Origin: Actinomycetota bacterium
Lineage (GTDB): Bacteria > Actinomycetota > CADDZG01 > JAHWKV01
Assembly: GCA_039929185.1 (NCBI GenBank)
Contig: JBDSRR010000140.1
Span: forward strand, 1-50,696
Length of the DNA: 50,696 nucleotides
Reading direction: 5' to 3'
Each line of letters begins with the position of its first letter. Within the stretch, counting starts at the first letter, position 1. Position numbers and translations under genes: made by a program. This document shows, one piece after another, positions 26,339 through 47,902 of the stretch. Under the pieces are notes generated by a model. That model worked only from the letters and a program-made list of their open reading frames with translations. It did no database searches and was not told where the DNA came from.

Positions 26339-26626
26339 CTAGCTGCGGGAGCGATTCGCCCTGCGAGCTTTGATCGCAGCGAACCGTCGCCGAACCTGAA
26401 ACAACGTTCGCTTTGCCCATTTGAACTCCCAAGACAAAACTGTCAGGCCAGCAAACAGCAGGGGTAGAGTAAAGGGGCCGGGCAGGGGGATCAAGAGCAG
26501 ACCGGCTACGATCAGCGCGCCTCCCAATATCCCGATCGCAACTCTTCGGGTGTGCTTGATAGCCACTGTAAGTGGAAGTTCCTGCGTATCGTCCCGTCGG
26601 AACTGCTGAGTATCGTTTGGGCCCAT
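26339..26626 (-). CDS. PGPGW-family small membrane protein
   Basis: [31 protein letters not shown] matches the PGPGW family pattern. I chose ATG 26626 because the track start at 26776 overlaps glpX. The start is uncertain because GGAGG sits only 1 nt from the ATG. Confidence 0.6.
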
Positions 26627-26660
26627 GCCTCCAAGGATTACATGCTTTAGGATTTCCCAA

Positions 26661-27662
26661 ATGGATACTAAGCCGGGCCCCGGTATGGCTGCTGATCGCA
26701 ACCTTGGTATGGAACTTGTCCGAGTTACCGAGTCGGCTGCTTTGGCCGCAGCTCGCTTGATGGGGCGGGGTGACAAAGAGGCCGCGGATCAGGCGGCAGT
26801 CGACGCTATGCGATTGATGATCTCAACCGTGCAGATGGACGGGATCGTAGTGATCGGCGAGGGCGAGAAGGACGAAGCCCCCATGCTTTACAACGGGGAG
26901 CGGGTTGGTACCGGCGAGCCTCCCCGGGTCGATGTGGCAGTCGACCCTATCGACGGAACCACGCTGACTTCTAAAGGGCAGCCCGGGGCGCTTGCGGTAA
27001 TCGCGGTGGCTGAGGCTGGCGCTATGTTCGATCCTGGCCCCAGCGTTTACATGGAAAAGATCGCAACCGGCCCCGAGGCAGCCGACCTGATCGACCTGGC
27101 CGCACCGGTAGGCGACAACGTTCGAGCTGTCGCCAAGTCGAAGGGATGCGATGTGCGCGACGTGACAGTCATCATTTTGGATCGCGACCGGCATGCGAAA
27201 ATCATCGAAGAGGTGCGTGCGGCGGGGGCCCGCATAAAACTGATCAGCGATGGTGACGTCGCGGCGGCGATCTCGGCTGCCAAACCCGGCACTGGTGTTG
27301 ACCTTTTGATCGGGATAGGTGGCACTCCTGAGGGAGTCATTGCAGCGGCGGCTATCAAATGTCTGGGTGGGGTGATCCAAGGAAGGATGTATCCACGCAA
27401 CGAACAGGAACGACAGGCTTCGATCGATGCCGGCTACGACCTAGACCGTGTCTTAACTACCGAAGACTTGGTTCGCGGTGATTGCTTTTTTGCGGCAACT
27501 GGAATCACCGATGGCGAACTGCTTCGCGGTGTCCGCTACGTGTCTGAGGGTGCCACAACGCAATCGATCGTGATGCGATCGCGCAGTGGGACCATCCGTA
27601 CCATCGATAGCGAACATCATTGGAGCAAACTCATGCAGTTCTCAGGTGTCGACTACGAGTAG
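26661..27662 (+). CDS. glpX: class II fructose-1,6-bisphosphatase GlpX
   Basis: [39 protein letters not shown] and [10 protein letters not shown] are present. The start is ATG 26661 (AGGA upstream) or ATG 26685. Confidence 0.92.
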
Positions 27663-38198: not shown

Positions 38199-39764
38199 GT
38201 GAGCGTTCTGAAACTCGTAGCCGACATTGCTCGTCCTGCAACTTTGAGGGGGCTGCGCAATGCCGGGATGTTCGAAGCGAAGTCACCTTTGGCCGTAGCC
38301 ATCTCGTTGCCATGGGTGATTGGTCGGGGGGTTTCGATAGGACTTCTCAGCCAGATGCATGCGTTCGTCATGGGTGACAAGACGGCACTCGTTGACCGAG
38401 AGGGCGAACTTACCTGGAGGCAGCTTGATCAGCGAACCAATCAGGCTGCACGCGTGTTGGCAGGCAAGGGTCTTATCGGAGGGGACCGCGTGGCGCTGCT
38501 GCTTCGCAATACGCGTCACACGGCAGAGCTGTTTCTAGCCGCGCAAAAAACGGGCCTTGGCGCGTGTCCGCTGAACACCTGGGCGAAACCTATGGAATTA
38601 GAAACGACCATCAACAGAGCCGCGCCGAAACTCATCATCTATGACCCGCGTCATCGCGATCAATTAGATGAGGTGAACCTAGGGGGAGTGCCCACTATCG
38701 ATCTCGACTCATATAACGAGCTTCGAGATCAGCAATCGGTGTCGGCACCGTTCCCTTTCACGAAACGCCGCGGTTCACCTCAGTTCATAATCCATACGTC
38801 TGGCACGAGTGGCAAGCCCAAGGGTGCGGCAAGGAGCGCTGCATCGACCGGGCTGGGTGCGATGGCCGAGCTTTTCAGCGTCGTTCCCTATCGTCGGTCT
38901 GATGTCATTTATTGCCCCGCACCGATGTTTCATTCATTCGGCCTTGCAACTTTTACGTTTTCGACCGTGTTGGGAGCGACTATCGTCTTGTCGGACAGAT
39001 TCGATGCTGAGGACAGTCTTGCTGCCATCGAAAAACATCGCGTGACGGCAGCATCTTTTGTCCCGGTCATGTTGCGACGGATCTTGGCATTGCCTGAGAA
39101 AGTACGTTCGCGATACGACCTTTCGAGTTTACGTATCGTCCTCGTCAGTGGTTCAGCTCTATCCGACGAATTGCGCGCCCAGGCTAATGAGTGTTTCGGC
39201 CCTGTTCTGTACGACTTATATGGATCAACGGAGGTTGGGTGGGTTGCCATCGCGACGCCTGAGGACATCCGAACCCACCCCGGGAGCGTCGGTAAGCCGA
39301 TGCCTGGCTTGAATGTAAGGGTCGTGGGTGGTCGGCTGATGATCAAGACCGGCATCGGATTCGAGGGATATACAACTGGCGAAGTGATGCCCGAGGCTGA
39401 CGGTTATCTAGAGATCGGCGACTCCGGTCACATCGATGATGACGGATACATCTACGTCGAGGGCAGAGCCGATGACATGGTTGTCGTTGGCGGTGAGAAT
39501 GTTTACCCAGCCGAGATCGAAGCGATGATAGAGACCCTCGATGGTGTAGTTGAAGCCGCGGCATTCGGAGTTGTGGATCACGAGTTTGGCCATGTAATGG
39601 CTGCGTGCGTCGAAGGAACCGCGTCGGTCGAACAGATCGACGAATTGTGCAAGCGAGGTTTGGCCTCCTACAAGGTTCCGCGATACATCCATGTGATGGA
39701 GTCGATGCCACGCACAGGTTCAGGCAAAGTCATCAAGGCAGAGTTGCGAGCCCTTATCCCCTGA
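38199..39764 (+). CDS. AMP-dependent acyl-CoA synthetase/ligase (FadD-like)
   Basis: The AMP-binding motif is IIHTSGTSGKPKGA. YGSTE, the GD-x-G region GDSGHIDDDGYIYVEGRADD and the C-terminal SGKVIK are present. The start is GTG 38199 and could be further downstream. Confidence 0.85.
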   Translation: MSVLKLVADIARPATLRGLRNAGMFEAKSPLAVAISLPWVIGRGVSIGLLSQMHAFVMGDKTALVDREGELTWRQLDQRTNQAARVLAGKGLIGGDRVALLLRNTRHTAELFLAAQKTGLGACPLNTWAKPMELETTINRAAPKLIIYDPRHRDQLDEVNLGGVPTIDLDSYNELRDQQSVSAPFPFTKRRGSPQFIIHTSGTSGKPKGAARSAASTGLGAMAELFSVVPYRRSDVIYCPAPMFHSFGLATFTFSTVLGATIVLSDRFDAEDSLAAIEKHRVTAASFVPVMLRRILALPEKVRSRYDLSSLRIVLVSGSALSDELRAQANECFGPVLYDLYGSTEVGWVAIATPEDIRTHPGSVGKPMPGLNVRVVGGRLMIKTGIGFEGYTTGEVMPEADGYLEIGDSGHIDDDGYIYVEGRADDMVVVGGENVYPAEIEAMIETLDGVVEAAAFGVVDHEFGHVMAACVEGTASVEQIDELCKRGLASYKVPRYIHVMESMPRTGSGKVIKAELRALIP

Positions 39765-39941
39765 AGTTTGGTTGACAAGCGCGTCTACGCCTACTCATCG
39801 ACCAAGGTCGCGAATAAATCTTTCGGCAAATCCGACAGAATCCACACAAGCCGGACTTCTTATTCTTGTGGGCGAGCAGGAATGAGCCCCAGTACGTCGA
39901 ATGTATTAGTCATCTAGACCTATTTCTCAGGGGGGCCAACT

Positions 39942-42900
39942 TTGTTTTCAAACGTTTCTACCGCGCGCGCATCTTGGCGTCGAACGGGCTGTATCTCGAT
40001 AGCTTTGCTGTTGTCTGCGTCATTGCTGACTATGGATGGCAGTTCCAACCAAGCCAAGGCTGCATCATCTTCAACCGGATTGACCGTCGCTGACGAGTAC
40101 AGTGCCGATTTTTCATCTTCGACGAGCCGCGGTATCGGGCTTCGCTACATCAACAAGGCAACCGATCTATACGTCGACCTTCGCCTGCATGGATACGAAG
40201 GCAAAGACCCCACCATCAGCGGCAAGAAAGCATCGTTCTCAGCCCCCGGGATGAAAGTGAACTACGAGACCGGCGTCGAATCTGTCAAAGAAACCATCGT
40301 CTTAGAAAAGCGTTCGCCCTCGACACTCAGGTTCAACTTCTCCGCTCCTGGGCTCAAAGCAAGTATGGAAAACGATCAGATCGTCTTCTCACCGCCGGGT
40401 GAGACTTGGATGTTTCGCTTGGGCAAGCTGGAAGCCAAAGATGCGCTCGATATCCCGATCCCAGGAACCATGCAGATCGAAGGCAGCACAGTGGTGATTC
40501 GGCTAGACCAAGCTGCACTTGCCAATGCCACCCTGCCGGTCACGATAGACCCCACCATCGAGGGCGTGCCTTCGGGGGCTACTTCGGGCACTTATGGCAA
40601 GAGATTGTTTCGAACCTCGGATGGTCGCTTCATCTTTTTCTATCGTGAGCTACCCACTTCTGGTCCAAGGCTCGTATATCGCACATCTGCGGACCAAGGC
40701 AAGACATGGACACCGGTCGTTGTCATCGGACCAGCTGGATCTTCAGCGGATCTTTCAGTCGCCTCTTTGCCAGATGACGGCTTCGCCATTTCCTACTCGT
40801 CCGGTACTGTTGATCTTCCCAAGGTGTCGTTTCGCCGCCTTACCCGCTCGGGTACCTCTTGGGATATCGGTGCTGACAGCCAAGTCACCAACGTGGCCGT
40901 GTACTTGTACCCGCTGCCGAGCGTCGTTGCTCTTGACGTTGGTCCTTTAGGCCAGCGCTTCGCCGTGGGGTATGCCCAGTTCAACAAAGTGTTCAACCGA
41001 TTTGAGTATGGCACGAGCTTGTCGCAGGACTCGGGTACGACCTGGCTTCCTGCACCTGCATGTTCTACCCAAACGGGTGCCGGCATGCTGGTCGCCCAAG
41101 GCTCGCGCCTTATCTGCATAACCGCGCATCCCGGTGGCGTTGATGCGCGGATTTACAATGGCACCACCTGGGGTACCCCCGTCGTTGTATTCGACTGCTG
41201 CATCAACGATATCCCGAGCGCCGCGACTACTAAAGATGGACGTTTGCACTTGGTCACGAGCAGGGCCAGCTCGGTGCGCTACTCGAGCCTGGCACCGGGT
41301 GCTTCGACTTGGCAACCCCAAAAGACACTTGGTTCTGGGAAATTGCCGGTCATCACCACCGACGGTACCGCACTGTTCGTACATGCTGAATACAGGTTGT
41401 CTAACAAAGAGTCGCAAATCAATTCCTTCGTCGCCACAGATGGCATCAACTTCAACGCCGGTAAACCCTTGGGGGGCAAGGCGTTCGATTACGTATTGGA
41501 TTACAACGAGAAATTCGATTTCCAAGACCTTGCAGGCGACGCATTGTTCGGTTTGGTTGCAACCGGAACAGTCGTCGGTAACCGCATCGGAAGTTCCTCG
41601 ATCTTTCACCGCTTAGATTCGCCCACTAAGAAGTTGTCATTCGGCTTTACAGCATCGGCTGCAGAGACGGTCACGGGTATCAAATTGTGGGCTACCGCAA
41701 ATGTCGTAAATACCTTAAGGGTCGGGATCCAGTCGGATTCAGGCAGCGCGCCTGGTATGCCAAGTGGTAACTGGCTTCAGGGCACAGGCACAGGAGGACT
41801 TCAGGTGAACTCGTTTACCAATATGACAACAGTTGCATCTCCAATCGACCCGATACCGCTCACGACCGCTTCGCTTCCGGTGACCCAGCTCTACGAGAAT
41901 GTGCGCTATCACCTTGTAGTTGAACCCGACGCCGCACAAAGCACAACCAAATGGGCAGCGATCCAAGCGGTTGGAACTGACGCTGGCTTGCAAACCCATC
42001 AGGACGTACTCGATTACGGGGTTACTTCGACCGCTTGGGTGGTGGCGGCTGCCGAGGTCCCGCGATTCGCTTTATCGGGTCCATCGGCAGAGATCATCGA
42101 ATCTCAGCTCATCGCCTTGGCTACCTCATATGCAGTGCGTGATTACCAAGGCCTTGATTACCAAGGCGTTGGGGAGTCTTTCCTGGCAACGAGCACCGCT
42201 ATCTCCCCAACCAACCTTCGAATGCATCTGACCAAGGTAGGAAACCCCCACACCATCAAGATACGCATGATTGAAGATCAAACCAACACCGAGATATGGT
42301 CAACCGAGTACACTCCGCCTTCTAGCGGTGGATGGGTGTCAGTTCCGATAACTGGGCTTACTCTCACGCCCGGAGCGAGGTACCGCTATACCGTTGAAGC
42401 GCTCACGTACTCCGCAGCCGACCATTGGTTGATGAGTACCTCCGGTGACATGGCCGTTTCTTGGGATGGGATTCTGAGCACAGCTACGCGCTATCTTGAC
42501 CGGCCCGGATTCGCTGACAAGACCGCTCGATCTGCCGACTCGGCCTGGGGCACCCCCGACTTCTGGGCGTTCAACACCGACGACAACGATGCCTTGTATC
42601 TGGGCAACTCAGAGCCATTTGACTTCGCCGTCCTCACCCGTTTGTCCGCCGATGTGGGCGTAAAGCCCGATGCCACCTGGTCCTATTACAACGGCGTGGC
42701 GGATACAGCGCTTGTCATGACCCGAAACGAACTCACCAAGACCTCGGGAGAGGCATCTTTCAACATGCCCGACGACTGGGCGATGTCGACCGTTGACGGC
42801 AAGAACGCCTACTGGGTGAAGGTGAAGGCGGCCTACCCGTCCATAGCATCGATCCTGGTTGACCGGTTGACCTCGATAAGAAACTTGTCAGCCCCCACCG

Positions 42901-45779
42901 CGACTCCGATCTTCGACGACCCCGTCCAGGGCTCACCCATTGCATACGCCGATCTCAACCTGCCTCCCAAGGTGGCCTTCACTCTGTACGACGCCGTAGG
43001 TCCGGCCGGCACTCCAGAGGTGCGCCCCAATCCCTTCGACCTGGGAGTCGGAGGAGTAACCCAGACGCATATCGGATTCTTCTTCCCCGAGCACGTTTCA
43101 TACACACTTTCGATCAAGAGGGCGTCGACCGACGAGGTGGTTCGAACCGTCAGTGGATCGGGTACCGGAGTGAGCTTTTACTGGGACGGCAAGGACTCCT
43201 CAGGGGGGACCGTTGGAAATGCTACATACAAGGCCGTCGTGTCCGCCGTGGACGATCAGGGAAACCAACAAACGGACGGAGTGTGGGTGACTAAGGGTCC
43301 GGGTCCTTTGATCACATCAACCTCGAAGACCAAGGTGCAGATCGGCGAGCTATTTACTGTCACCGGCACTGGGTTCGACACGGGGCTCGGCGTCTACGGG
43401 GTGAACTTCGAGGGAGGCTCCTTGGAGGTCTCATCTTGGAGCCCGACTCAGATCGTCGCGCGCTTTCCTGCTGGGACTCAAACTGGATCTCACTCGATAA
43501 ACGTGTTGGAAGCCGATACGACAAGTCCACCCTTTTTGATCGACGTCGCAAACTACATCGTACCCACCTTAGGGCAGGAGATCCTGGCTGGGATCATGAC
43601 CTTCAAGGTGACCGCATCAGCGGACGCCTTCGCTATCGCTTCGTCTCACGGTGTTCCTACATCATCTGTGTCGGCGATGTTTGCGGGAACTTCCGACACC
43701 GATCTGTCCCGTTGGTATGTCGCGCAAGTCAACCCGACGACCGAAGCCTCCTTAGTGACGGCGTTCGCCGCCGACTCGCAGGTGGTGTGGGCTGAGGTAG
43801 AAACACCGGCCTTCCCGGCTGCAACCATCCCCAACGACAAGGCCTACACCGACGGCAAGCAATGGGGCCTGGACGATCTTTCAGGCACGACCGACAACGA
43901 CATCGATGCCGCACGGGCATGGGACGTTTCCACGGGTGTTACTTCCACGACGATCGCCGTCATCGATTCAGGAATCTCGCCCCACTGGGACCTTGTTTCC
44001 AACCTGGTTGCAGGAAGAAACTACACAACGTCAACCTCTACCGACGACGGTTGCATCGGCACAGACATCGGATCGCACGGCACCGAGGTGGCGGGCATCT
44101 CTTCTGCGGCGACCAACAACGGCAACGTAAATCAGCCTGATTCGATGGCGGGGGTGTCATGGATTGGTAAGGTGCGCCCCTACAAAGTGCTGTCCAACAT
44201 CGGGGGCCACTGCCGTTGGGCGACAGCGACGCCCACGACCACACTTGCAAATGTGATCTACCAAGCTGCTGTTGACGGCAGCGACGTGATCAACATGAGC
44301 CTCACGCAGTCGATGTACTCGGGATCTGAGCAGGACGTAATCACCGGCGCCTGGAACCTGGGAAGAAGCCTCGTCGCACCCTCCGGCAACGATGGTGCTG
44401 CCGTCACCTCCTTCCCGGCGGCATTCAAGCACGCGATCGCAGTCGGAGCGATAAACAGGGCGGGAAATATCATTTCATCCTCAAATAAAGTCGACAAGGG
44501 CAAAGGTGTGTATGCCCCCGGGGCCGACATCTACACAACGCAGGCAACATCATCGGGATACGGATTCGCTCAGGTCACGGGGACTTCGTTCGCGTCGGCA
44601 TTCGTGGCGGGAGTTGCCTCGCTCATCCGCAGTAAGGGCCAAGACAACGTCTACACATTCCATGCAATCGTGGATATCGCCATCCAAAGAAAAACCGACG
44701 GCCCTCAGTTGTTGTGGGCTGACGGCTCTCTGATCCTATTTAGAAACGTAACCATTCCCGATGGCGTGTTCGTTCGCAATCAATCTTCCTGGTATTTCCT
44801 TGATCGAGGAAAGAAGCGGCTAATAGCCGATGCCAACATCCTTCATTCGTGGGGTATATATGATCAGCTGAACGACAACAGCCGCAGGACCAACGTGGTC
44901 TATGTCAACGACGAACGTCTGCCATTAGCAAAGGGAGATCTCCTTGGCTTTCGTCCCGGCGTTCTTTTAAAGTCAGACGTGACAACCGACACCAACGTTT
45001 ACGTCGTCTCCAATGACATCAATCCCAACCCGGGGCTCGATACGAGCGAGTTTGGTCGCTGGACCAGGGGCGATCTCAAATCGCTCGACCCGGCAAGACT
45101 TGCCTGCCTTGGCTACAAGATCGACAGGGCCATAACTGTACCGGTGGCCCTCCTTACCGCCCTCTACTCCACCCCGACTGTCTACAATTCGTGCGACAAC
45201 CATCCCAACGGGTCGATCCTTGCCAACACGACGCCGGCCGTGGGCAAGACCTTCTGGATGAGAGACCTCGGCACCCTGCGCACCGTCGCTGGAACCAACG
45301 AGACAGCGTCATTAGAAGGGCAAGTAAACGGGCAAAGTACACGAAACGCAGGGGTCTTCACCTCCTGGGGTATGGGTGACTTTGACGACCCGCTCGCCAA
45401 CGACGCCATCATTCCCAACTCCTCCGCCGACTTGGAAATACAGCGGCTGCAACCCAGCCAGCTCGTGACCGAAGGACGTACTTGGCTGGGGTATCGGTCT
45501 GGAACAACGGTCAAGCTCACTTATAAGGACGGCTCTCAAGAATTGTTCGTGATCACACTTCCAAACGCCAACGGGATCGCACCCGACTTTGGTGCCGCGA
45601 ATCGTCGGGTATTGGACAGCTACCGCACCCTAACTTGCTATGGCTTCTCCTGGCTTGCAATCCAGGCAAGAGGGGATTGGAACACTGTTAACGGGATCCA
45701 TCACGTCCAGGTGAACGTTGAGACTTACAAGAACCAGAAGGCTATTAATATACCCAACGTATTTTTGCCTTGCCCTTGA
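39942..45779 (+). CDS. 1945-aa secreted multidomain protein: Asp-box (BNR/sialidase-like) region, beta-sandwich modules, FlgD-Ig-like and IPT/TIG-like domains, I9-like propeptide plus S8 subtilisin-family protease, and an unassigned C-terminal region
   Basis: TTG 39942 follows AGGGGGG. The signal-peptide-like N-terminus ends AKA/A. Asp-boxes are TSADQGKTW (40683-40709) and SQDSGTTW (41022-41045). The S8 triad is D1342 in VIDSG (43965-43967), H1379 in HGTEVAG (44076-44078) and S1549 in GTSFA (44586-44588), with the oxyanion Asn in SGNDG. Confidence 0.85.
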   Translation: MFSNVSTARASWRRTGCISIALLLSASLLTMDGSSNQAKAASSSTGLTVADEYSADFSSSTSRGIGLRYINKATDLYVDLRLHGYEGKDPTISGKKASFSAPGMKVNYETGVESVKETIVLEKRSPSTLRFNFSAPGLKASMENDQIVFSPPGETWMFRLGKLEAKDALDIPIPGTMQIEGSTVVIRLDQAALANATLPVTIDPTIEGVPSGATSGTYGKRLFRTSDGRFIFFYRELPTSGPRLVYRTSADQGKTWTPVVVIGPAGSSADLSVASLPDDGFAISYSSGTVDLPKVSFRRLTRSGTSWDIGADSQVTNVAVYLYPLPSVVALDVGPLGQRFAVGYAQFNKVFNRFEYGTSLSQDSGTTWLPAPACSTQTGAGMLVAQGSRLICITAHPGGVDARIYNGTTWGTPVVVFDCCINDIPSAATTKDGRLHLVTSRASSVRYSSLAPGASTWQPQKTLGSGKLPVITTDGTALFVHAEYRLSNKESQINSFVATDGINFNAGKPLGGKAFDYVLDYNEKFDFQDLAGDALFGLVATGTVVGNRIGSSSIFHRLDSPTKKLSFGFTASAAETVTGIKLWATANVVNTLRVGIQSDSGSAPGMPSGNWLQGTGTGGLQVNSFTNMTTVASPIDPIPLTTASLPVTQLYENVRYHLVVEPDAAQSTTKWAAIQAVGTDAGLQTHQDVLDYGVTSTAWVVAAAEVPRFALSGPSAEIIESQLIALATSYAVRDYQGLDYQGVGESFLATSTAISPTNLRMHLTKVGNPHTIKIRMIEDQTNTEIWSTEYTPPSSGGWVSVPITGLTLTPGARYRYTVEALTYSAADHWLMSTSGDMAVSWDGILSTATRYLDRPGFADKTARSADSAWGTPDFWAFNTDDNDALYLGNSEPFDFAVLTRLSADVGVKPDATWSYYNGVADTALVMTRNELTKTSGEASFNMPDDWAMSTVDGKNAYWVKVKAAYPSIASILVDRLTSIRNLSAPTATPIFDDPVQGSPIAYADLNLPPKVAFTLYDAVGPAGTPEVRPNPFDLGVGGVTQTHIGFFFPEHVSYTLSIKRASTDEVVRTVSGSGTGVSFYWDGKDSSGGTVGNATYKAVVSAVDDQGNQQTDGVWVTKGPGPLITSTSKTKVQIGELFTVTGTGFDTGLGVYGVNFEGGSLEVSSWSPTQIVARFPAGTQTGSHSINVLEADTTSPPFLIDVANYIVPTLGQEILAGIMTFKVTASADAFAIASSHGVPTSSVSAMFAGTSDTDLSRWYVAQVNPTTEASLVTAFAADSQVVWAEVETPAFPAATIPNDKAYTDGKQWGLDDLSGTTDNDIDAARAWDVSTGVTSTTIAVIDSGISPHWDLVSNLVAGRNYTTSTSTDDGCIGTDIGSHGTEVAGISSAATNNGNVNQPDSMAGVSWIGKVRPYKVLSNIGGHCRWATATPTTTLANVIYQAAVDGSDVINMSLTQSMYSGSEQDVITGAWNLGRSLVAPSGNDGAAVTSFPAAFKHAIAVGAINRAGNIISSSNKVDKGKGVYAPGADIYTTQATSSGYGFAQVTGTSFASAFVAGVASLIRSKGQDNVYTFHAIVDIAIQRKTDGPQLLWADGSLILFRNVTIPDGVFVRNQSSWYFLDRGKKRLIADANILHSWGIYDQLNDNSRRTNVVYVNDERLPLAKGDLLGFRPGVLLKSDVTTDTNVYVVSNDINPNPGLDTSEFGRWTRGDLKSLDPARLACLGYKIDRAITVPVALLTALYSTPTVYNSCDNHPNGSILANTTPAVGKTFWMRDLGTLRTVAGTNETASLEGQVNGQSTRNAGVFTSWGMGDFDDPLANDAIIPNSSADLEIQRLQPSQLVTEGRTWLGYRSGTTVKLTYKDGSQELFVITLPNANGIAPDFGAANRRVLDSYRTLTCYGFSWLAIQARGDWNTVNGIHHVQVNVETYKNQKAINIPNVFLPCP
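42141..42170 (+). repeat. in-frame 2 x 15-bp tandem duplication (GATTACCAAGGCCTT / GATTACCAAGGCGTT) inside the giant gene
   Basis: Read directly from the sequence. The copies match at 14 of 15 positions and encode DYQGL-DYQGV. Confidence 0.95.
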
Positions 45780-45849
45780 GGAATTTCCCCAGGAAAGAAG
45801 GAGATCAGGGTTCTATGACGAACTATTTAGGAGAAGGAAAGAGCGAGGG

Positions 45850-47226
45850 ATGGGAATGAATATCAGCAGCGGCCTTAGAAGAATCAGTTGGCGAGGGACA
45901 TCTTTGGCTTTGCTAGTGGTAATCACGACTGTCGCGCTGCCAGGCCTTTCTGCGACAGCGGGCCCGGGGACTATCTCTCAGATTCCCCTTGCTGGTTACT
46001 CCTGTGGGCTAGCAATCGACCCTACTCGAAATCTTGCCTATACCCTCACCGGGTGTTACGGAGCGCTGGACATTATCGACCTCTCCCAAGGAAAAGTTGT
46101 CCATACGATCTTTCTTCCCGAGCCAGATGCATGGGCAGTGGATGTGAACCCGGTAACCAACCGAATCTATGTGGCGACAAGTCCGGGTGGCGCTGGCTAC
46201 CAGGGGCGACTGATGGTTGTCGACGGAAACTCACGACAAGTGATTGCAAACATTCCAGTAGGCGATGGTGTCGTGTCGGTTGCAGTAAACAGCGTCACCA
46301 ACCGCATCTATGTGTCTAACGCCAACTCTGCCTACGTCAGTGTAATCGACGGTGCCACCAACACTGAGATCGCACAGATTCGGCCTTATCCCCATGGGAC
46401 GGTTAACTACCCCTACGACTTTGCTGTCGATCAGGACTCGAATCTCATCTACGTCTCATTGGCTTATCCTGTAGCCGTGGCTGTTGTAGACGGTGCCACG
46501 AACCAACTCCTTGGGACCATTCCCACCCCACCCGGCCCGGATCCATATTTAGCCCTCGATAATTCCACGCATCGACTTTTTGTCATTCATTCAGGCTCGA
46601 ATAACATGCAGGTAATTGATACGAACACCAGAACAGTCATTGCAGACTTCAAAGTGGGCGCCAATCCCCTTGACGTGGTGGTGAGCCCCTTGACGCATCG
46701 GGTCTATGTGTCGCGGCTTGGCTCGAGTGTCTTTGGCCAAGGTTATCTGCTCACTATCGACCAGACCACGAACTCCATAATCGACACTTCGCGCTCGATC
46801 GGTTCGGTTCCGTGGTATCTGGCCGCTGCCCCCACGGGTTATCGTCTATATGCTGCCGATGCTTGGGGTAGCTCGCTCAGCGTCATTTCCGAGGATGTCG
46901 TTGCGCCAGTTTCAACCATCTCCACCCCTAACGCTTCGATCCGATCCCCGGGACAGACCATCTCGGGCAGCGTCACAGAGGACTTCTCGGGGGTGGCCAA
47001 AGAACAAATCACGTTCACGGGGGCTCTCGGGGCAGCAACGCAGACAGCGACCCTGACCTGCACACCGAACCGACTTTCATGCACCTGGCAAGTCCCCGCA
47101 CCGACAACCCCAGGCGCTTACCTGGTGCAGGTACAGGGGGTGGACAACGCTGGGTCGACAGAAACCGCGGGCCCATCGACCTCCGATCCCAAAGCAGGTC
47201 CGTACATCGCTATCACGGTGGTCTGA
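45850..47226 (+). CDS. secreted YVTN-family beta-propeller repeat protein with a C-terminal Ig-like domain
   Basis: The start is ATG 45850 or 45856 (GAGGG upstream); the track start at 45718 overlaps the giant gene. The signal peptide is RRISWRGTSLALLVVITTVALPGLSATA. Repeated ~40-aa units read NRIYVATS, NRIYVSNANSAYVSVIDGATN, NLIYVSLAYPVAVAVVDGATN, HRLFVIHSGSNNMQVIDTNT and HRVYVSR. Confidence 0.8.
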   Translation: MGMNISSGLRRISWRGTSLALLVVITTVALPGLSATAGPGTISQIPLAGYSCGLAIDPTRNLAYTLTGCYGALDIIDLSQGKVVHTIFLPEPDAWAVDVNPVTNRIYVATSPGGAGYQGRLMVVDGNSRQVIANIPVGDGVVSVAVNSVTNRIYVSNANSAYVSVIDGATNTEIAQIRPYPHGTVNYPYDFAVDQDSNLIYVSLAYPVAVAVVDGATNQLLGTIPTPPGPDPYLALDNSTHRLFVIHSGSNNMQVIDTNTRTVIADFKVGANPLDVVVSPLTHRVYVSRLGSSVFGQGYLLTIDQTTNSIIDTSRSIGSVPWYLAAAPTGYRLYAADAWGSSLSVISEDVVAPVSTISTPNASIRSPGQTISGSVTEDFSGVAKEQITFTGALGAATQTATLTCTPNRLSCTWQVPAPTTPGAYLVQVQGVDNAGSTETAGPSTSDPKAGPYIAITVV

Positions 47227-47479
47227 AAGGCCAAATTTGGCCCTGTGTGTTGCCTGACATTGTCTTGGCCCCGTGGTACCCACATCGGAATCGATGATGG
47301 CATTGGGCGATACTTTCCTTCGGGGGGACGCGGGCACTGGAACACCGACTGGCTGCCACGGAACCACCCGAATGGAAAGCGATTCGCTCCACCGTCGCTG
47401 GCACGGGCACTGCCGACCTCCAAGAGCCTAAGGTACGCCTCCGACCTCGAAAACGTCGAGTGGGCAGATTTGCGGAGTC

Positions 47480-47902
47480 TTATCCCCTGAAGTGTTGGGT
47501 TTCTGGTGATATGACCAAGATGACTCGCTCGCTGGTTATGCTCTGGTCGTTGTATGCCTGGCCCGTGTATTTCTGAGCCAGAAAGTCGATGTGTGCCCGC
47601 GCCTCGGGGCCTTTGATGGTCTTCACTACGGTTCCTCTTACTTCACCGAACTTGTAGGGATTGTCTAGGTCCCAAACGGTTACCGTGACTTGGGGTCGTT
47701 CCTCGATGTTTAGGAATTTGCGCCGATGTACTTCGGTATTCATCAAGATCGACTCTTCGTCGCAGTCCACCCACATGACATGGCTCTGTGCTCGTCCACT
47801 TGGAAGGATGGAAGTTATGACAGCGAAATTCGGTGCCTTGCAGAGTTCACGTACGTCGGGATTTAGGGTCACGCTGACACCGTCGGCCGATGGCCATCCC
47901 AT
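47480..47902 (-). CDS. PPOX-class (pyridoxamine 5'-phosphate oxidase-like) probable F420-dependent enzyme
   Basis: NFAVITSILPSGRAQSHVMWV ... RPQVTVTVWD is a split-barrel pattern. An alternative start is GTG 47872, forming a GTGA overlap with the amidase stop. Confidence 0.8.
   Translation of the reverse strand: MGWPSADGVSVTLNPDVRELCKAPNFAVITSILPSGRAQSHVMWVDCDEESILMNTEVHRRKFLNIEERPQVTVTVWDLDNPYKFGEVRGTVVKTIKGPEARAHIDFLAQKYTGQAYNDQSITSERVILVISPETQHFRG

Follow-up and report, generated by a model that had tools for sequence, protein, structure and literature searches.

The described systems closest to the locus analysed here are the thermitase-type subtilases, the YVTN beta-propeller of an archaeal surface-layer protein and the Sec-dependent polymorphic toxins of the Rhs/YD type. 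The locus comprises two genes, one for a giant secreted subtilase and one for a secreted YVTN beta-propeller protein, and lies on contig JBDSRR010000140.1 (C140) of the assembly GCA_039929185.1. This contig of 50,696 nucleotides (50.7 kb) was analysed whole and is called the window below; it belongs to a 2.02-Mb metagenome-assembled genome (MAG) of Actinomycetota (G000; 279 contigs, 85% complete), and the locus is likewise contained in the Logan run SRR26386592.

The S8 domain of the giant protein is homologous to that of the thermitase-type subtilases (1THM, 1DBI), with the catalytic triad and the oxyanion Asn intact, and the likeness extends to a predicted Sec export and to a propeptide-like segment upstream. 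In contrast to these enzymes, the pro-protease of the window sits about 1200 residues inside a protein of 1945 aa, behind a putative binding trunk, its S8 domain is followed by an orphan domain of 355 aa, and its gene is always paired with a propeller gene. The structure 1L0Q, which we take to be a YVTN beta-propeller followed by a PKD domain, resembles the second gene product in its propeller-then-immunoglobulin (Ig)-like layout, the Ig-like tail of the latter being weakly detected; 1L0Q covers only part of a large archaeal S-layer protein, whereas gene 2 encodes a stand-alone bacterial protein of 458 aa. A link to the Sec-dependent Rhs/YD polymorphic toxins (WapA-like) is that the same trunk of about 1000 aa occurs on DUF6531 and RHS shells of other bacteria (P0140, P0177), and a dedicated downstream gene and downstream gene fragments are further points of likeness. 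Unlike these toxins, the giant of the window lacks RHS repeats and matches no recognised toxin or immunity family, and its close copies show no cassette-like exchange of the C-terminus. Zhang et al. (2012, PMC3482391) name subtilisin among the processing proteases, and beta-propellers among the repeats, of Sec-exported polymorphic toxins. Among the NCBIfam models, that of the mycosins of type VII secretion (TIGR03921) fits the S8 domain best, and the host is an actinobacterium, but the score of 105.2 bits is far under the cutoff of 278.75, the C-terminus has no hydrophobic segment that could serve as a membrane anchor, and the neighbourhood is free of ESX genes. With integrase-mobilised genomic islands the locus has in common a direct repeat at the 3' end of a gene, but it carries no integrase, no tRNA and no shift in composition.

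The two genes are placed as follows.

39942..45779, forward strand: giant secreted pre-pro-subtilase (gene 1), 1945 aa, with a TTG start
45780..45849, forward strand: intergenic gap of 70 bp with the ribosome-binding site of gene 2
45850..47226, forward strand: secreted YVTN beta-propeller protein (gene 2), 458 aa, with an ATG start at 45850

Whole-genome searches revealed two further giant and YVTN pairs in the same genome, one on contig C251 (4306-10197 and 10275-11705) and one on contig C142 (8033-1893 and 1783-464). The window copy is designated paralog A, and those of C251 and C142 paralogs B and C, respectively. Paralog B is 44% (giant) and 43% (YVTN) identical to the window copy and paralog C 41% in both proteins. 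Order and orientation are the same in all three pairs, the internal gap measures 77-109 nt in the other two copies, and the three giants are collinear over about 1950 aa, aligning end to end with few gaps. Among the relatives searched (designated by G numbers), the genome of a sister genus (G005) contains the same giant-YVTN junction, complete, on its contig C40. The YVTN gene is thus next in 4/4 giants whose 3' side was assembled, so that the proposal of an earlier reading made from the sequence of the window alone (hereafter the sequence-only reading), that the two genes form one unit, is borne out by the comparison of synteny and co-occurrence that it had called for. Among 19 other genomes of the same family that were searched, the pair was found in one; in 17 of the 18 beyond G005 it was not found, only ordinary S8 proteases of 350-550 aa being present there and matches to generic YVTN repeats being at most weak (E 3e-7, in one genome). 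Taken together, these comparisons indicate that the pair is a conserved, lineage-specific unit that was duplicated at least three times.

The three copies lie among unrelated housekeeping genes: A lies between an AMP-dependent ligase gene and a PNPOx-family gene, and B between selA-selB and a DUF222 gene. Third codon positions among the paralogs are saturated (identity of 0.33-0.35), which points to old duplications. In the YVTN tree, paralog C groups with the G005 copies (support 91/95) and A with B (83/88), and therefore at least two cassette types would be older than the split of the two genera. According to these data, the multi-copy state is old and at least partly predates the genus split. 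The sampling of this lineage is sparse, with protein clusters of 1-3 members, and a word-based search with the whole giant as query missed even the paralogs.

The giant protein contains the following parts, all encoded on the forward strand.

40062..42971: trunk module, aa 41-1010, with an N-terminal beta-sandwich, a sialidase-like BNR propeller and beta-sandwich domains
40584-41501: BNR propeller within the trunk, about aa 215-520, placed by profile matches
43089..43520: Ig-like domains FlgD_ig (aa 1050-1104) and TIG (aa 1122-1193), from Pfam
43554..43826: propeptide-like segment, about aa 1205-1295, ending in V(E/V)WAE before the catalytic domain, recognised by position and conservation
43947..44675: Peptidase S8 catalytic domain, thermitase-like, aa 1336-1578 (Pfam PF00082)
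44709..45776: orphan C-terminal domain of about 355 aa, conserved among five heads

The TTG start lies 6 nt after a GGGGGG run, both the TTG and the G-run are kept in paralog C, and the copy of the protein in an NCBI-derived database is also 1945 aa long. The signal peptide, read by eye, is predicted to be of the Sec type and ends in AKA|A, an AxA-like site. The S8 domain scored 95.1 bits against PF00082 (gathering cutoff 21.8), and its profile matched the AK.1 protease 1DBI best among the PDB structures (E 3e-49), followed by thermitase 1THM (E 1e-44). Paralogs A, B and C, the G005 copy and P0187 all retain the catalytic D (DSG), H (GSHGT) and S (GTS) and the N of GN(D/N). The propeller of the trunk matched PDB sialidases with a profile E of 6e-7, an alignment that is too weak to place the catalytic residues of sialidases, namely the Arg triad, the Tyr/Glu nucleophile pair and the Asp acid/base; the propeller contains two Asp-boxes (SxDxGxTW), and BNR_2 matches 14/18 trunk relatives, while DUF4082 gave weak matches in later trunk parts of 3/18. 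Matches to Pfam and PDB profiles thus confirm the giant protease of the sequence-only reading, with its propeller and Ig-like folds, in the form of an S8 domain, Ig domains of the TIG and FlgD types and a propeller of the BNR/sialidase-like kind. For the orphan C-terminal domain no relative was found in Pfam or PDB. Conserved Cys residues are present in it, along with what looks like an internal repeat (SWG...GFRPG / SWG...LGxRPG). It is the least conserved part of the giant: identity between the paralogs, which are homologous to the end, declines along the protein without a break, from about 45% to about 25%. To judge by where it lies and how well it is conserved, the segment of about 90 aa ending in VEWAE would be the propeptide.

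Two further features lie at the end of the second gene and just past it, on the forward strand.

about 46912-47223: probable Ig/PKD-like C-terminal domain of gene 2
47229..47242: palindrome GGCCAAATTTGGCC, 2 nt past the stop of gene 2, a weak terminator candidate

The product of gene 2 was said in the sequence-only reading to be a YVTN propeller protein with a signal peptide and a C-terminal Ig-like domain. The propeller is well supported, with 60.5 bits against TIGR02276 (YVTN repeat; cutoff 27.85) and, as best solved relative, a fragment of the surface-layer protein of Methanosarcina mazei (1L0Q, E 3e-26); a Sec-type signal peptide, with the site ATA|GPG, was again read by eye. For the Ig-like domain the support is weaker, since the C-terminal 100 aa or so gave weak matches of Ig type only (Big_13 E 0.058, PKD E 0.12). 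With this reservation for gene 2, both products combine propeller and Ig-like parts, as had been noted, and both are predicted to be exported, each through a Sec-type signal peptide with an AxA-like site. The equivalog model of YncE (NF052280) was matched with 76.3 bits against its cutoff of 400. In a search of 5.8 billion clustered proteins, nothing other than gene 2 itself came closer to it than its paralog (40% identity), and the remaining relatives are generic YVTN proteins. No terminator-like site was predicted in the 70-bp gap between the two genes.

A full HMMER scan with the N-terminal profile against 1.84 billion representative proteins showed that the trunk is not confined to this lineage. 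About 40 proteins match the whole trunk, with E down to 1e-291, and they carry other heads: DUF6531 and RHS repeats (3163 aa and 1945 aa), PD40 with DUF6531, unassigned heads and, in one relative, a head with a weak Pfam match to Exo_endo_phos (nuclease/phosphatase family). In the profile search, the S8 head was confined to this lineage: it sits on the trunk of the three paralogs, of the G005 fragment and of one further fragment. These matches indicate that the trunk is a reusable module of about 1000 residues in other bacteria. Scans of a genome collection and of metagenomes for the trunk gave distant matches to single subdomains plus one acidobacterial locus. In this locus (L042, Acidobacteria MAG JACQXY010000049, 9968-15113), the gene for a trunk protein of 1170 aa has, 20 nt behind it, one for a secreted PD40 beta-propeller lipoprotein. 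This arrangement, together with the fusion of PD40 to the trunk in one relative, shows that an association of trunk and propeller recurs outside the lineage.

The insertion of the pair between its neighbours left a scar, which consists of the following features on the forward strand.

39737..39771: left direct repeat, comprising the last 9 codons of the AMP-ligase gene, its stop and 7 nt beyond
47463..47498: right direct repeat, a relic of the AMP-ligase 3' end, overlapping the last codons of the PNPOx-family gene
47394..47471: relic of a giant of the paralog C type, from the end of the propeptide (...YASDLENVEWA)
joint in the paralog C giant: ...GAGTGGGCAGAGTTcgagg
joint in the AMP-ligase: ...caaGGCAGAGTTGCGAGCCCTTATCCCCTGA
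joint in the relic: ...GAGTGGGCAGATTTGCGGAGTCTTATCCCCTGA

The imperfect repeat of 35/36 nt brackets the locus and is identical at 31/36 aligned positions, including an exact 15-mer; its score of 22.5 was reached by 0/3000 random pairs of genome windows at the same spacing. The claim that the locus has no flanking repeats has therefore to be withdrawn. As the right repeat overlaps the last codons of the PNPOx-family gene, the ancestral ligase and PNPOx genes likely had overlapping 3' ends. The relic in the downstream spacer agrees with the giant of paralog C (LEYASDLQNVEWAE, end of the propeptide-like segment) in 62/80 aligned columns and in 35/39 nt at its 3' end, and its alignment score of 43 to paralog C, against 15-17.5 to paralogs A and B, shows that it is not a chance similarity. 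It is joined in frame to the ligase 3' end at a microhomology of 9 nt, GGCAGAGTT, and a chimeric joint of this kind is the signature of illegitimate recombination and not of integrase action. As the sequence-only reading had stated, no integrase was found in or beside the interval of 7.7 kb, nor any other recombinase gene; the interval holds two genes only and has metabolic neighbours. The accessory insertion proposed in that reading is supported as well, and better than it had assumed, in view of the duplicated ligase 3' end, the chimeric junction in the spacer and the presence of the pair in only 1 of the 19 other genomes of the same family.

We also searched the spacer for a longer relic of the AMP-ligase C-terminus and rejected it, as there is no significant DNA or protein similarity past the 35-nt repeat; that stretch is the giant relic. 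A putative second relic of a giant, DAGTGTPTGCHGT, is located at 47327-47365 (forward strand, frame 2) and is similar to DGCIGTPTGSHGT, the motif around the catalytic His in paralog B (9/13, E 0.01). This second relic is out of order with respect to the propeptide relic, which suggests that the spacer is a patchwork of fragments. Right after the stop of YVTN paralog C (L020, G000 C142), positions 396-461, which correspond to 2633-2693, are likewise a 66-nt fragment of the C-terminal domain of giant C itself, about 200 nt long at the protein level and 78-92% identical. The only ligase orthologs among the relatives, those of G005, G003 and G002, are placed beside other genes or at the edge of a contig.

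Two genes with spacers of 177, 70 and 253 bp had been described, and the gene models and gap measurements reproduce all of them (GC of 0.50, 0.47 and 0.60, respectively). These spacers, long as they are for so compact a contig, had also been called the longest non-coding ones of the window, which is not the case: with longest-open-reading-frame gene models, gaps of 292 bp (2296-2587) and 286 bp (26339-26624) exceed them, and three more gaps, of 132, 87 and 72 bp, are longer than 40 bp. Putative small open reading frames were noticed inside the two long gaps, at 2305-2610 (101 aa) and 26339-26776 (145 aa). The GC content of the pair is 0.56, and that of the third codon positions is 0.65 in the giant and 0.59 in the YVTN gene against about 0.61 in the flanks. 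In synonymous codon usage, the giant has a z of 1.7 and the YVTN gene, marginally the most deviant, a z of 3.5, the other genes of the window ranging from -3.1 to 3.1. The absence of a compositional shift is thus confirmed, as is that of tRNA genes, none of which was found in the window, and the match to the flanks points to an insertion that is old or came from a close relative. The sequence-only reading had tied a core locus to two properties together, a composition like that of the flanks and presence in all relatives; the first was found here and the second was not.

Based on these data, we propose that a cassette of leader, giant subtilase and YVTN-Ig partner underwent duplication as one block, at least three times, in this lineage. 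Illegitimate recombination at a microhomology, without an integrase, brought the window copy into its place between the AMP-ligase gene and the PNPOx-family gene that converges on it, and likely routes are homology-facilitated illegitimate recombination, with the ligase gene as anchor, or template switching. This event left both the duplication of 35/36 nt of the ligase 3' end and the chimeric fragment of a C-type giant in the downstream spacer. Both proteins would be exported by Sec. The trunk would be a carrier that binds surfaces or glycans, a role in keeping with its use in Rhs-type proteins; the internal propeptide would fold the thermitase-type S8 domain, and autocleavage past the propeptide would detach a head of about 650 aa, made of the S8 and C-terminal domains, from the trunk. 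The YVTN-Ig protein would be expressed from the same transcript and may be an extracellular binding partner of the giant, either a scaffold or an inhibitor, and the most likely role of the pair would be extracellular proteolysis at the cell surface, for nutrient scavenging or surface remodelling. We assign to this explanation as a whole, with its structural, evolutionary and functional parts, a probability of roughly 0.55. Its structural and evolutionary part, taken alone, appears very probable, and the proposed function as an extracellular, surface-associated protease with an accessory partner is a tentative assignment that we place slightly below even odds.

Several observations weigh against this proposal. 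The propeptide-like segment matched no Pfam family, I9 included. The flanking repeat was found post hoc, with an empirical p below about 1/3000 and a best random pair of 22.0 against 22.5; around paralogs B and C no flanking repeats above background were detected, and an empty site, with the ligase directly convergent on the PNPOx gene, was not found in the relatives. We know of no YVTN or PD40 propellers that act as protease partners. AlphaFold2 with an alignment of the three paralogs gave no usable model (pLDDT, the predicted local distance difference test, of 47 for the trunk and 32 for the half with S8 and tail), and Foldseek with the trunk model gave uninformative TM-scores near 0.1. The poor models are explained by the alignments of only three sequences that were used, and the folds of trunk and tail consequently rest on sequence profiles only.

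An effector-immunity system in the style of the polymorphic toxins would read the same features differently: the trunk would deliver the protein or bind its target, the S8 domain would release itself or the orphan tail as the effector, and the YVTN-Ig protein would protect the producer, with three such sets in the genome. As in polymorphic toxins, a conserved N-terminal carrier region occurs here with different C-terminal domains (S8, RHS with DUF6531, PD40 with DUF6531, a weak Exo_endo_phos-like head and unassigned ones), and both the RHS/DUF6531 shells and the weak Exo_endo_phos head speak for such a system, as does the listing of subtilisin and beta-propellers for Sec-exported polymorphic toxins (PMC3482391). 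Every giant is moreover strictly followed by a co-diverging partner that would be exported to the same compartment, and the C-terminal domain is the least conserved one. However, homology among A, B, C and the G005 copy extends through their heads to the very end, with no abrupt C-terminal switch between otherwise similar proteins, the tail has no match to a toxin family, and the partner matches propeller models only and no immunity family; it is also large (458 aa) and separated by a gap of 70-110 nt. The giant fragments downstream of two pairs are reminiscent of displaced orphan modules, yet these relics measure just 80-200 nt and include neither an orphan head nor a partner. We regard an effector-immunity role as unlikely. 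A wider conjecture, which we consider doubtful, is that the trunk represents an undescribed Sec-dependent carrier of exchangeable extracellular effectors in uncultured bacteria (Rhs shells, nuclease-like heads and self-releasing subtilases), in which the heads of S8 and C-terminal domain would be antagonistic, the YVTN-Ig protein would be a new extracellular immunity protein or inhibitor, and the three pairs would have been shuffled between loci by illegitimate recombination.

Alternatively, both proteins could be abundant building blocks of an envelope or S-layer-like surface that the S8 domain merely matures, the copies providing surface variation, for example against phages. The nearest solved relative of gene 2 is indeed the archaeal surface-layer fragment 1L0Q, whose YVTN-PKD layout, as we assume it, matches the proposed one; the giant gene has a long conserved leader sharing a motif with the regions upstream of rpsL and pyrG, a feature suggestive of strong expression, and multiple old, diverged copies are present in the genome. 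Yet neither protein has a recognised wall anchor (SLH, LPXTG or a C-terminal transmembrane segment), the catalytic domain is that of a fully equipped degradative-type subtilase, and it would be odd if a core layer of the envelope were missing, as the pair is, from most genomes in the family, so that this role seems quite improbable to us. It could also be argued that there is no functional coupling, and that the two genes are neighbours duplicated together while the spacers and the repeat are chance features, given that the repeat is short and was found post hoc and that YVTN propellers are very common (686 matches, mostly in unrelated context). Against this stand the order, orientation and short gap, which are kept in 4/4 junctions despite a divergence of about 60% and differing neighbourhoods, and the match of the relic to paralog C with a score of 43 against 15-17.5; we consider such mere adjacency very improbable.

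The protease-with-partner proposal bears on several wider points. Giant secreted proteins take up a surprising share of the small genomes of uncultured bacteria and are almost never understood; here, the giant and YVTN genes amount to about 22 kb, or roughly 1% of a 2-Mb genome. The trunk of about 1000 residues links degradative proteases with Rhs-type toxins, and the fixed partnership of protease and propeller can be tested directly for binding or inhibition. Should the partner turn out to be an inhibitor, it would represent a new class of secreted proteins for protease control or immunity. The microhomology junction and the duplicated target end also provide an example of cassette movement without an integrase.

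Upstream of the giant gene, the leader forms a feature of its own.

39805..39941, forward strand: conserved leader of the giant gene, opening with AGGTCGCGAATAAATCTTT (39805-39823) and containing a G6 ribosome-binding site at 39930-39935

The leaders of A and C are about 76% identical in nucleotide sequence, against about 49% in the coding regions. The core CGCG(A/T)A(T/G)AAATCT is also present upstream of rpsL and pyrG in G000 and of pyrG in G005, and this sharing makes it look like a promoter element of the housekeeping type. Its sites lie on contigs C34 (upstream of pyrG), C239 (upstream of rpsL) and C166 of G000 and on C6, C102 and C88 of G005; in these two genera, it is found 35-130 nt upstream of rpsL, pyrG and two giant genes. 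Genome-wide there are 6 near-matches to the motif with about 9 expected by chance, and the case rests on the positions of the matches. The AGGTCGCGAATAAATCTTT block is probably the promoter element of the family, followed by a conserved 5' leader of about 120 nt. For the leader RNA the consensus fold is not convincing: at -11.6 kcal/mol it is weak, and two sequences gave a single covarying pair. A consensus scan for promoters and terminators in the window gave no more sites than in shuffled sequence, and Rfam families had zero matches in it.

The window copy is flanked by the AMP-ligase gene (38199-39764) and by the convergent PNPOx-family gene (47480-47902, reverse strand), and the other genes on the contig include ergothioneine genes (egtD, egtB, egtA), an amidase gene and ABC genes. 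The egt genes, like the DUF222 gene next to paralog B, point to a host in the Actinomycetota. Within the giant gene, the first 200 codons or so (39942-40540) have a third-position identity of 0.42 between A and C, while the pairs with B have 0.18-0.25; A and C are closer to each other there than over the remainder of the genes, and this likeness of the 5' ends and the shared leader hint at an old gene conversion of the 5' end. In G005, further giant and YVTN fragments at contig ends suggest assembly breaks in repeated genes, and two nearly identical YVTN partner genes begin at contig edges (C105:15-1235 and C48:15-1229), which points to a recent duplication and to giant genes of the sister genus whose assembly has collapsed or is broken. 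The genes immediately preceding paralog B (L019, G000 C251, 894-3990) are selA and selB, which encode selenocysteine synthase and its elongation factor, and the genome therefore probably makes selenoproteins. On another contig of G000 (C40:3053-4030), an S8-like open frame is interrupted at a TGA and at a TAG; a pseudogene is one possible reading, a selenocysteine encoded by the TGA another.

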